A DNA stretch of 64,000 nucleotides from Escherichia phage vB_EcoM-S1P5QW: sequence record OL956808.1, one strand, 5' to 3'. The translations under genes and the position numbers were made by a program. Each line of letters begins with the position of its first letter. The first letter of the stretch is position 1. Shown here one piece after another: positions 50,558 to 54,322 of the stretch. Below the pieces are notes generated by a model that was not told the origin of the DNA, made no database searches, and saw only the letters and a program-made list of their open reading frames with translations.

Positions 50558-50565
50558 TATTTATA
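50558..50565 (-). promoter_or_regulatory. Late promoter TATAAATA for gene t
   Basis: Exact TATAAATA on - strand 18 nt upstream of t ATG, overlapping gene 38 stop. Confidence 0.5.
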
Positions 50566-51112
50566 CGTAATGCTTGAATAAACGCTTATACCAAGGCTTC
50601 TGTTCTTTTTCAGGCCATTTAGGAAATTCACCACCTAAATGCTCATGCTTTTCTAAAAGAGCAAAGAACCGCTTAAGGTTTTTATAATAGAATTTTTCCT
50701 TTTTATTCGCGACAGAAGCTTCAATCATATTATTTAAAACTTGGAATTCTTTGTATAATTCTTCAATTTTTCTATTGCGAATTAAAACGCGTTTATATGT
50801 TTCGTCTTCTTTCCAACCATCATCAGTCCATATATCAAATTCGCCGGGTTCATCAAAAGTTATACCAACCGGGCTTCCTATGTCAGTTATTAAGATTTCT
50901 TCTTTATTAAAAGTCCAAGCCCGTTTACCGCGATGGTCTTCTTCATAAATCCAATCCTGAATACGTTCATCAAATACAACTGCGTATCCTTCTTTAGGTT
51001 CTAAAGGTTTTTTAATTGTTGAATGAGCAGGAAGACCGAGACCTTTAACAGGTTTGTAATTTTCTTCTTTGTAAAATTCTTTAGTGTCAAAATAATAATG
51101 ATAGATTTTCAT
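50561..51112 (-). CDS. 38: Tail fibre assembly chaperone gp38 (T4 type)
   Basis: 183 aa; matches recalled T4 gp38. Confidence 0.9.
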   Translation of the reverse strand: MKIYHYYFDTKEFYKEENYKPVKGLGLPAHSTIKKPLEPKEGYAVVFDERIQDWIYEEDHRGKRAWTFNKEEILITDIGSPVGITFDEPGEFDIWTDDGWKEDETYKRVLIRNRKIEELYKEFQVLNNMIEASVANKKEKFYYKNLKRFFALLEKHEHLGGEFPKWPEKEQKPWYKRLFKHYV

Positions 51113-51120
51113 ATTTAGAA

Positions 51121-51134
51121 GGGGCCGAAGCCCC
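51121..51134 (-). other. GGGGC-UUCG-GCCCC hairpin between gene 37 stop and gene 38 start
   Basis: Tetraloop hairpin on transcribed (-) strand 8 nt upstream of gene 38 ATG. Confidence 0.5.
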
Positions 51135-51139
51135 TCTCC

Positions 51140-54100
51140 TTATGCTAAACGAACAATATAGTTAAAAGCAATGTTTTTAACCGTGTTTTCTGTATTACCT
51201 GTACTATTTACAGTGATAGTATGACCATGCGAGCCAATTGCTACCGTGTGGGTATGAGCACCGATACCTACAGTATGGGTATGAGCACCAATACCAACAG
51301 TATGCGCGTGAGCGCCTGCGCTTGCAGCAGTACCAGATATAGAGTGCGAATGTGCCCCAGAAGAAGAAGTTCCAAGCGTATTACCACCACCGGCGGATCC
51401 TCTTATAGAACCAGTACCAGGAGAGTTGTTACTTCCCGCATAAAGAGCGCTTGTGTGGCTGTGCGCACCGGCGGTGTTTGTGGAACCGCTCAAACTATGC
51501 GTATGAGCACCAGTATTATTACTGGTCTTAGTACCATAATCAAAGCTTGAAGTCGTTTTGCTACCGTAATCAAAACTAGAAGTGGTCTTAGTACCCAAAT
51601 CTGTGCTTGATGCACTTGCACTATGGCTATGTGACTTAACACCGTCTGCTTCTGTACTTAATACAGCGCGCCCAGATGGTTTACCCTTGATAGTTTGACC
51701 ACGCATATCAGGCAGAGCGCCAGAAGGATACACCGCAGCTAACTTAGGATACAAGCCAGTATCAAATGTTTGGCCTTCCATTATGGCATAACCTTCAGGA
51801 GGTGTATCAGTAGGCCAAGGAATCGGAGCACCAATTGGATAACTCGATACAATATCGGTTTTAAGTGATTCAATTGTACTATTTAAGTTGGCAAAATTAC
51901 CAGAACCACCAGTAATGTTACCGTCTGTACCTAAATAAACTGAACCCCCAGCAGAAATGCGCTTAGGAGATATAAAATCACCAGAACGTGTAAATTCCCA
52001 GCCTAAATCTTTTATAACTGCGCCTGTTGAACTTCCGTCTCCACCTTCATGATAATGAACTCTAAAGTTACCACCATTAATTAAAGTGCCTAACGAATAA
52101 CAGCTGTTACCTTGAACATAACGTTGTTTTAAAATAGGAACGTAAGTACTTGTATCTGTGCGATTAATATTCATATAGAACGGAGCACGAACGTTTTCAT
52201 TATTTTGTGAAGCAAAAGACCCTGCACCAGCCGGACGTACTGTATCAGTGCATTCAGCATCAATATAAGCTGCTTGTCCTAATTGCATACGGTAATTAGG
52301 AGAAATGCGGCTATGACTAGTAACAACAACAAGTTTACTGTCATTGTCCACAGTAATCATATTACCGCCAGCGCCATCATCGCCTAACGTAACAGAATGG
52401 CGCATTTTTACCATACCATTATTAAGACTAATACTTAGCGGGCGGAGATTACTTATTCCACCACTTTCACCGGCATCTTTAGGAGTCGGGATAATATGTA
52501 ATGCTGTTTCTGAGCGACGGAAAATAGCACCGTATTCGGCATTCCAAATTCTTAATGCATCTGCCGTTCCACCGAATTTAGCCTGACCATTTACAGATAA
52601 TCCATTATTTGCAACTAAACTTGATTCAGTAACAATAGAACCAGATGATGTAATACCACCAGAAGTTAATAAACCACCATTAACTCGAAATTGAATAGGT
52701 CCGACGGTAGAACCTGATCCGGGAGCAACTCGTTGAGAATAAAAATGGTAACCTTGTCCATCTGATACTTCAAAAACTGTTTCACGAGCACGATCGCCAG
52801 ATGCATTAAAGGCATTACCCCATGCTTTGATAGATAGATAACTTTTATTCTGACCTGGGCGAGTACCGCCGGCCCACAATATAGTTTTAGTGCCATCTGT
52901 TGCTGTAGGAGCGTCAAGTTGAATACCGTCGGGTCTAGCACCAGTAAGAACTAATCCGTTATCAAATTTAATTCTTTGTATTGAAGATACTGTTCCGTCG
53001 GCATAAAACTGTACGTTATTAGAGCCAGTTACCAATTTCAAAATACCCGGATTAACTTCCATACCTTCCTGAGTATTAATATTAGTTTTGCCTTTACCAC
53101 GGAAATAGTGGTTCATTTTTCCGCCTGAGTTATAGCCAATATGCGTCTGGCCGTCTCCAGCAGTGTTTTCATCAGCCTGTGTTTGAACTGATAAAAAGGC
53201 AGCGTTCGTTCCAGGCATTGTCCAGGTTCCGCCTTGGTCTTCTGAACGTCCAAATAACGCTTTACGAGTACTACGGAAACTATCAGGAGTAATAGAAGCA
53301 ACAGAATTCCAATTACCTACTAAATCATAAACACCCTGCTTAATGTATTTTAAACCAGTGGCAGCATCGCCCAAAGCAATATATCTTTCTCCCATTGGAG
53401 TAGGAGAACCATAGTTGTTAGTATTTTCGTCAGTGGTAATTGTGCCAATAGCAAGTGAACGACGTAATACCATTGCGCCATCATTACGAAGACCCATTAA
53501 TTTAGTAGTAAGTGTATTTCCGGTCCACCAAGAAATTTCATCATTTTTACCGGTTTGAGCTGAAGCGATTTCATGGTAAATGGTTCCGCCTGATTTAGCT
53601 CGAACTTTACGAAGATAGTTTATACCATTTTCTTCACCTGTTCCAGGATAAACATATTGAACTAATGATTGCGAATCGTATTGTCCAAATGCTTTTGTAT
53701 CTAAAATAATATTTTTAGTATTAATCTGAGGCGAAGTAATATTTCCGAGAGCTGCAATATTTCCAGATGTAGTTATACTACCTCCTGATACTGCTAAACC
53801 TCCACCGTCAACAACAAATCCGCCGTCACGTCGAAACGTCCAATATTTCGAATCGCCAGATTCATTGATATAATGAATCTTCAACGAACCTTCAGAAACT
53901 AAAGTACCTAATGAAAAAGTTCCATCTTTAAAGCGCTGTTTAATTATAGGATTATATTCAGATGTGGAAGTAGCTGAGCTTAAATCTACAAAAATTGGAG
54001 CTTTTGCAGTGTGTTGACCAGACCAAGCCCCACTTCCAGTAGTACGATAATTAAACTCAATATATCCACCGCTTGCTACAATTTGCGGACCAATTAAATT

Positions 54101-54322
54101 AAATTTTCCAGTCTGTGTATAATCGCCAGTTTGAGTGATATTTCCACTAATATTACCGCCAGCGGTAATGCTTAAATCAATAATATTTCCCGAGTCATCT
54201 TTAGTAAAAAGAGTACGGTCTTTTAAGTTTATAGCCAATTCACCTTCGGCTAATACTGAAGCAGCAGGACGTTGACCTGCGGTTTTGCTTCTTTTAAATT
54301 GTATTTGTTTTAAAGTAGCCAT
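51140..54322 (-). CDS. 37: Long tail fibre distal subunit gp37
   Basis: 1060 aa; C-terminal His-box repeats ([15 protein letters not shown] x2) and ...[11 protein letters not shown] end; synteny 34-35-36-37-38. Confidence 0.9.

Follow-up and report, generated by a model that had tools for sequence, protein, structure and literature searches.

Genomic context of gene 37

The window, by which we mean the whole stretch of 64,000 nucleotides that was analysed, derives from Escherichia phage vB_EcoM-S1P5QW (OL956808.1), and carries the following features around the distal tail fibre gene:

51140..54322, minus strand: gene 37, encoding the distal subunit of the long tail fibre, 1060 aa and a stop codon (open reading frame, PHROG 1699 and T4 homology)
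51118..51137, minus strand: hairpin GGGGC-UUCG-GCCCC, located after the stop codon of gene 37 and before the start codon of gene 38 (-15.6 kcal/mol, z = -3.1)
50561..51112, minus strand: gene 38, T4-type tail fibre assembly chaperone, 183 aa (98% identity to T4 gp38; PHROG 105 'tail fiber assembly')

The original prediction had assigned the long reading frame to gene 37, and this assignment is borne out by a match of aa 1-1059 to PHROG 1699 ('long tail fiber protein distal subunit', E = 2e-275) as well as by a full-length alignment to T4 gp37 at 66% identity. The lengths it gave are also correct, namely 1060 aa in the window and 1026 aa in T4, where gene 37 spans 3081 nt. Among the 34 residues that the window protein has in excess of T4 gp37, 19 belong to the needle at the C-terminus (+10 and +9) and a further 16 to an unrelated module near the N-terminus (aa 60-205), with small indels elsewhere amounting to a net -1. 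Judged by homology, the protein is a T4-type gp37 in which every testable defining feature was found, and the window is that of a T4-like phage.

The product of gene 38 is, at 98% identity to T4 gp38, a chaperone of the T4 type and not an adhesin of the T2 gp38 type; a Pfam search of gp38 returned no match, its identity being given by PHROGs and by the direct comparison with T4. The holin gene t (PHROG 860) is encoded downstream of gene 38 on the minus strand, and the order 37-38-t is that of T4. In phage G2285, a putative terminator is annotated at the position equivalent to that of the 37/38 hairpin. An antisense reading frame (51221..51550, plus strand, 109 aa) lies wholly within gene 37 and was rejected as a gene, being without support.

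The nearest genome to the window is that of phage TH09, with 97% identity over 20 kb and, at the end of its record, 374 bp at 100% identity. Over gene 37 from end to end, no record exceeds about 94-97% identity, for which reason we regard the gene as mosaic.

Architecture of the C-terminal domain

The fibre of T4 is built from three chains that trimerise with the help of gp38 and of gp57A, the latter being encoded elsewhere in the genome. Following the fibre axis, each chain first extends outward, then forms a small receptor-binding tip and finally turns back, resulting in a six-stranded stem. Iron ions pin the core of this stem, and each of them is octahedrally coordinated by six histidines, with one HxH motif coming from each of the three chains. 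The receptors of T4 are OmpC or LPS.

[quoted passage not shown] In PMC11705849, HxH motifs are reported to be iron sites in several phage fibres, and the seven irons of the T4 needle are described as bound by the paired histidines of such motifs. By electron microscopy, the T4 needle measures about 150 x 25 Å (PMC3004832).

The sequence of PDB entry 2XGF, a crystal structure of the T4 gp37 receptor-binding domain (residues 785-1026), matches aa 801-1060 of the window protein with E = 4e-97. On this basis, the C-terminal part of gene 37 can be divided, in the order of the protein chain, as follows:

51689..51832, minus strand: collar domain, aa 831-878, belonging to knob D10 (Pfam PF07484, 42.9 bits, cut-off 24)
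51623..51631, minus strand: HxH motif 1, H898-S-H900, at the stem base (aligns with T4 H883/H885)
51500..51619, minus strand: outgoing-arm array of four 10-aa units, aa 902-941, with three units in T4 (repeat family D1)
51560..51589, minus strand: 10-aa unit that T4 lacks, aa 912-921, its placement within the repeat being ambiguous (gap in the T4 alignment)
51452..51511, minus strand: outgoing 14-aa HxH module, aa 938-957, with HxH motifs 2 and 3 (PF03335; 14-residue spacing)
51359..51454, minus strand: tip (head) subdomain, aa 957-988, putative receptor-binding site (2XGF/T4 alignment; limits from PMC6957217)
51302..51358, minus strand: returning 14-aa HxH module, aa 989-1007, with HxH motifs 4 and 5 (HxH positions and spacing)
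51209..51316, minus strand: returning-arm array GAHAHTVGI/GAHTHTVGI/GAHTHTVAI/GSHGHTITV, aa 1003-1038, with three units in T4 (TRF period 27; repeat family D2)
51290..51316, minus strand: 9-aa HxH unit that T4 lacks, aa 1003-1011 in the alignment, its placement being ambiguous (gap in the T4 alignment)
51143..51208, minus strand: C-terminal return into the collar knob, aa 1039-1060 (22 aa, 100% identical to T4)

Identity to T4 amounts to 83.5% over aa 801-897 and to 76-84% in the arms of the stem. The alignments to T4 and to 2XGF agree that the only indels in the stem are +10 in the outgoing arm, corresponding to a 10-aa KTTSSFDYG(S/T) unit, and +9 in the returning arm, corresponding to a 9-aa GAHxHTVGI unit. 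There is hence one more copy of each of the two units than in T4, so that the repeat number differs from that of T4, in agreement with the original prediction. Following the collar, eight HxH motifs are present in the window, with the spacing layout [42,14,37,14,9,9,9], compared to exactly seven in T4; seven of the eight align with those of T4 and the eighth is located within the inserted 9-mer. The Pfam family PF03335 (Phage_fiber repeat) is found at aa 935-948 with 24.7 bits, above its gathering threshold of 20, and matches the 14-aa HxH unit, whereas the 9-aa and 10-aa units of the proximal stem are not captured.

By homology to 2XGF and by the domain limits given in PMC6957217, both extra units are placed in the stem, outside the tip, which contradicts the claim that the repeats form part of the receptor-recognising tip. 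The same applies to the claim that the tip is expanded, as the tip retains the T4 spacing of 37 residues between its flanking HxH motifs and differs from that of T4 by substitution (28% identity). Since the tip shares only this degree of identity with that of T4, the receptor of the window phage is probably a different one.

Repeats in the peptide and in the DNA

Every peptide repeat quoted in the original prediction is present in the reading frame, with the 26-aa SFDYG(S/T)KTTS-type peptide located at aa 911-936, the 33-aa His-box peptide at aa 1003-1035, and GAHTHS, GAHSHT and GAHSHS at aa 938-943, 952-957 and 989-994, respectively. At the DNA level, near-identical repeats of 20-30 nt had been described. 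This is true of the 20-nt cores, the copies of which are 90% identical (family D3), but not of the whole units, which share 77% (30-nt units) or 78-81% (27-nt units) of their nucleotides.

The 27-nt array at 51227-51316 (family D2) was reported by TRF with a score of 100, 84% matches and 2.6 copies. The 30-nt array at 51523-51610 (family D1; three copies, 75-82% identity) went unreported by TRF even with the minimum score set to 30, but was detected by another repeat search. The longest exact local repeat, found at a lag of 27, measures 14 nt and was equalled in none of 500 codon shuffles, the maximum of which was 13. Between the two DYG units, 7 of 30 nt differ, and five of these differences are synonymous third positions within the nine shared codons.

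Distribution of the eight-HxH form

The eight-HxH layout was found in 11 of 12 related Tevenvirinae, a proportion that is biased upward as the 12 were picked by similarity to the query. The 11 are JQD51, GiZh, PNJ-9, AV117, F2, AV116, ST0, slur03, JS09, PhiZZ6 and VR25, while EP01 carries seven motifs like T4; seven are also found in G2285. In a less biased, even-step sample of 484 tblastn hits, the four-unit span of 222 nt occurs in 19 T4-like genomes, that is in about 19 of 25 T4-like rows, and a span of 186-192 nt in six rows, three of which represent T4 itself. T4 is the shorter, minority form, and the gene of the window is 'expanded' only relative to T4. The proposed repeat expansion consequently stands as one additional copy of each unit compared to T4, but not as a property peculiar to the window phage. 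In other words, 'expanded relative to T4' reflects a reference bias, as T4 is the textbook reference but a minority form.

The closest counterparts of the domain are those of JQD51 (PV204681) and GiZh (KT184311), which show a collinear match of 661 bp to the window at 96.5% and 96.2% identity, respectively. In both, the HxH layout [42,14,37,14,9,9,9] and the tip peptide are identical to those of the window, and within the last 190 aa there is one substitution in GiZh and two in JQD51, whereas the remainder of gene 37 is mosaic. JQD51 was isolated on an O157 strain and GiZh on an O111 strain. T4 gp37 has the collar, the stem, the tip, the C-terminal return and the HxH iron-ligand motifs in common with the window protein; it differs by one 10-aa and one 9-aa unit fewer and by its tip.

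Outside this group, the same domain is found in the lambda side fibre Stf (orf-314), with four rungs (a proximal rung being one outgoing 10-aa unit and one returning 9-aa unit), eight HxH motifs and the layout [42,14,48,14,9,9,9]. Its outgoing arm is 84% identical to that of the window, and stf is followed by the tail fibre assembly gene Tfa (orf-194) just as gene 37 is followed by gene 38. The tip of Stf, in contrast, is longer and unrelated in sequence to the window tip, and the domain resides on the side fibre of a siphovirus, whereas that of the window resides on the long tail fibre of a myovirus. The rung states of T4 and of the window are both found in outgroup prophage fibres, and either the loss of a rung in T4 or the gain of one in the others would be compatible with this. 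The state seen in the window is an ordinary, common and already sequenced allele that agrees with the structure published for T4.

Co-variation of the two arms in homologues

At E <= 0.001, 2017 homologues were counted. The sample comprised the top 120 clusters (90% identity) and 150 cluster representatives (50% identity). These yielded 234 sequences with an interpretable C-terminus, a slight overcount since the two sets share a few proteins (e.g. P0018, P0022, P0038); as the sets are also not phylogenetically independent, they represent fewer than 234 independent paired changes.

Let n stand for how many terminal 9-aa HxH spacings a protein has. Throughout these 234 homologues, the spacing between the first and the second HxH motif is then 12 + 10n, and the combinations that occur are 22/1, 32/2, 42/3, 52/4 and 72-73/6 (spacing/n). 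The 14-aa HxH spacings, too, are equal in number on either side of the tip (0/0, 1/1 or 2/2). Only four sequences deviate, in that a histidine is lost or gained with the spacing kept, and no intermediate changed in a single arm was found among the 234 homologues and five size classes. With M denoting the number of 14-aa spacings per arm, the number of HxH motifs is given by 3 + 2M + n, i.e. seven for T4 (n = 2, M = 1) and eight for the window (n = 3, M = 1).

Each proximal rung would combine an outgoing unit of 10 aa with a returning unit of 9 aa, which would leave one residue per rung to be absorbed.

Age and origin of the units

Across 12 genomes, orthologous units are more similar to each other (0.83-0.89) than are paralogous units within a genome (0.77-0.81), from which it follows that the duplication is older than the split between these phages. 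The allele state with the extra rung is thus an old one, inherited or horizontally exchanged, and bears no sign of recent slippage. The original prediction had pointed to slippage and recombination, but a recent event of this kind is at odds with units that have diverged at synonymous sites and resemble their orthologues more than their paralogues. In the family as a whole, homogenisation does occur occasionally, as the two 30-nt units of VR25 are 100% and those of PhiZZ6 90% identical, and slippage is a plausible origin of the rung changes.

Tetart and colleagues (1996, J Mol Biol 258:726, cited in PMC6957217) reportedly described laboratory-selected duplications in T4 gene 37 that affect host range, the end points of which are said to lie in His-box motifs. 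Like the duplications in the window, these concern short stretches of gene 37 within the part that encodes the C-terminal adhesin. The former are new mutations, however, whereas the units of the window are old, common to many phages and located in the stem. They are not a newly arisen tandem duplication that close relatives lack, given that 11 of the 12 relatives and lambda Stf share them.

Discussion

From our point of view, the repeats at the 3' end of gene 37 are best understood as rungs in the stem of domain D11, the 'needle' of a T4-type gp37. A proximal rung would consist of an outgoing, Ser/Thr-rich unit of 10 aa lying against a returning GxHxHTVxI unit of 9 aa, whereas the distal part of the stem would be formed by one 14-aa HxH unit per arm. 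With four proximal rungs compared to three in T4, the window protein would present eight HxH motifs and, going by their count, would bind eight irons per fibre instead of seven; the stem would be longer by about 2 nm (roughly 15%), as estimated from the dimensions of the T4 needle. Host specificity would be located in the tip (aa 957-988). Taken as a whole, we hold it to be very probable that the window encodes a needle with one extra paired and iron-bound rung, which folds with the same gp38 and the host range of which is set by a tip that is unrelated to that of T4 but is already known from other phages.

As T4 has seven HxH motifs and seven irons, the 'His boxes' can be understood as iron ligands of the stem. 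They would thus be structural elements and not elements of specificity. The same one-to-one match in T4 suggests an iron at the eighth HxH site of the window. With respect to the pairing of the arms, the contacts G921-F970 and G964-H929, which are given for T4 in PMC6957217, imply that paired residues sum to about 1892 and, as such, that the outgoing segment 885-915 of T4 runs alongside the returning segment 977-1007, which contains the 9-aa HxH array. Both insertions of the window fall into the equivalents of these two segments. Register and co-variation together thereby point to a physical pairing of the two extra units. The additional stem length itself may be functionally neutral.

One could also imagine that the extra units bulge out as surface loops, providing a secondary binding surface or flexibility, instead of forming a paired and iron-bound rung. 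The unequal lengths of 10 aa and 9 aa would be compatible with this, as would the Ser/Thr-rich segments, which are capable of looping. We nevertheless regard such loops as quite improbable, since the arms strictly co-vary over the five size classes of the 234 homologues, since the GAHxHTVGI motif of the inserted 9-mer is perfect, as in the iron-binding units next to it, and since the three 10-mers and three 9-mers of T4 occupy, by the reported contacts, the paired segment. Slightly less probable still is a recent expansion of the receptor-recognising tip by slippage or recombination that would have changed the host range of the window phage. The tandem arrangement of the units and their exact runs of up to 14 nt would agree with such an event, and the identical 30-nt units of VR25 demonstrate that homogenisation or fresh duplication does happen. 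However, the units of the window are found in the stem, outside the tip, their number is the same in 11 of 12 relatives and in lambda Stf, and the paralogous copies are only 77-81% identical, differ mostly by synonymous changes and are less alike than orthologous ones.

Short tandem repeats are furthermore prone to mis-assembly, and an artefact could in principle have inflated the copy number. With units of 77-81% identity, which is divergent enough for unambiguous assembly, with a frame that is intact up to a C-terminus 100% identical to that of T4, and with the independently sequenced JQD51 and GiZh being collinear over 661 bp (96.5% and 96.2% identity), we consider the likelihood of this to be negligible.

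For the window phage itself, a needle with one extra paired rung is of little import, as it represents a normal allele of a well-understood protein, the C-terminal domain of which is found in the same form in GenBank. The practical value is in tail fibre engineering and annotation. The host-range determinant to be swapped or mutated would be aa 957-988 (51359-51454) and not the repeats, and in a chimera with its junction within the stem the number of units would have to stay equal on both arms. The HxH count further predicts 8 Fe per fibre and hence 48 per virion with its six fibres, compared to 42 for T4.

Because the arms co-vary in the homologues, the stem can be viewed as a ladder the rungs of which are changed on both arms together. 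It is a tentative proposal, and one that we are inclined to doubt, that the needle of T4 gp37 and lambda Stf is in general a strictly modular ladder, the length of which is tuned by paired indels in whole rungs. Such a ladder may range from two to seven proximal rungs, corresponding to one to six 9-aa spacings, and from zero to two 14-aa spacings per arm, and the rule that rungs change in lock-step may be the one new item of the present study. If this rule is indeed undescribed, it would provide a simple formula for the HxH count and a design constraint for chimeric fibres. It would also pose the puzzle of how compensating double indels arise in arms that are about 90 codons apart, and raise the question whether the length of the needle is adapted to how deep the receptor lies beneath LPS or capsule.

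Modular structure of gene 37

Judged from sequence comparison, gene 37, which encodes the distal subunit of the long tail fibre, is a modular mosaic. Residues 1-59 of gp37 share 83% identity with T4, as compared with 27% for the neighbouring residues 60-205 (window 53708-54145), a segment that also carries a net surplus of 16 residues, and the best DNA matches differ between parts of the gene. As a side observation, the record of phage TH09 (MT446387, labelled 'UNVERIFIED') stops within gene 37, and its terminal 374 bp (167283-167656) are 100% identical to the window, whereas the identity elsewhere is just 97%, over 20 kb.

Variation of the needle stem

Within the outgoing arm of the stem, the two 30-nt DYG units of gene 37 are 100% identical to each other in phage VR25, and the outgoing-arm units of PhiZZ6 are 90% identical, as compared with 77% in the window. 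Such near-identical units suggest that gene conversion or re-duplication occasionally takes place inside the outgoing-arm array. The extremes of the ladder among the needle homologues are represented by three proteins, namely P0115 with seven proximal rungs and no 14-aa spacing at all, P0226, which combines just two proximal rungs with two 14-aa spacings on each arm, and P0021, which has the same number of 14-aa spacings per arm but four proximal rungs and thereby reaches 10 HxH motifs.

Two further features lie within gene 37 or just beyond its stop codon:

51221-51550, + strand: antisense open reading frame of 109 aa, wholly inside the repeat region of gene 37
51118-51137, minus strand: GGGGC-UUCG-GCCCC tetraloop hairpin (-15.6 kcal/mol, z = -3.1)

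We found no indication that the antisense frame is a gene. The richness of its product in Arg, Ser and Thr is what is expected of the gene 37 repeats when they are read backwards.

Gene 38 and its chaperone product

The hairpin is located between the stop codon of gene 37 (51140-51142) and the ATG of gene 38 (51110-51112), and it lies in the stretch of about 24 nt that separates a Shine-Dalgarno-like sequence, AAGGAG, from the gene 38 start codon. Gene 38 of T4 is a classic example of such a hairpin bringing the Shine-Dalgarno sequence near the AUG. At the equivalent position of phage G2285, a putative terminator is annotated.

The chaperone gp38 itself (window 50561-51112) is 98% identical to that of T4, even though the tip whose folding it assists (51359-51454) shows only 28% identity with T4 and the stem has one additional rung. 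Evidently, co-variation of the chaperone with either stem length or tip sequence is not required.

Lambda Stf (orf-314, locus 362-1306) shares with the window eight HxH motifs and four rungs, with spacings between successive motifs of [42,14,48,14,9,9,9] in Stf, whereas its tip is longer and unrelated. With conserved flanks on both sides of it, at the collar and at the C-terminus, the needle could be exchanged as a whole between T4-like and lambdoid phages.
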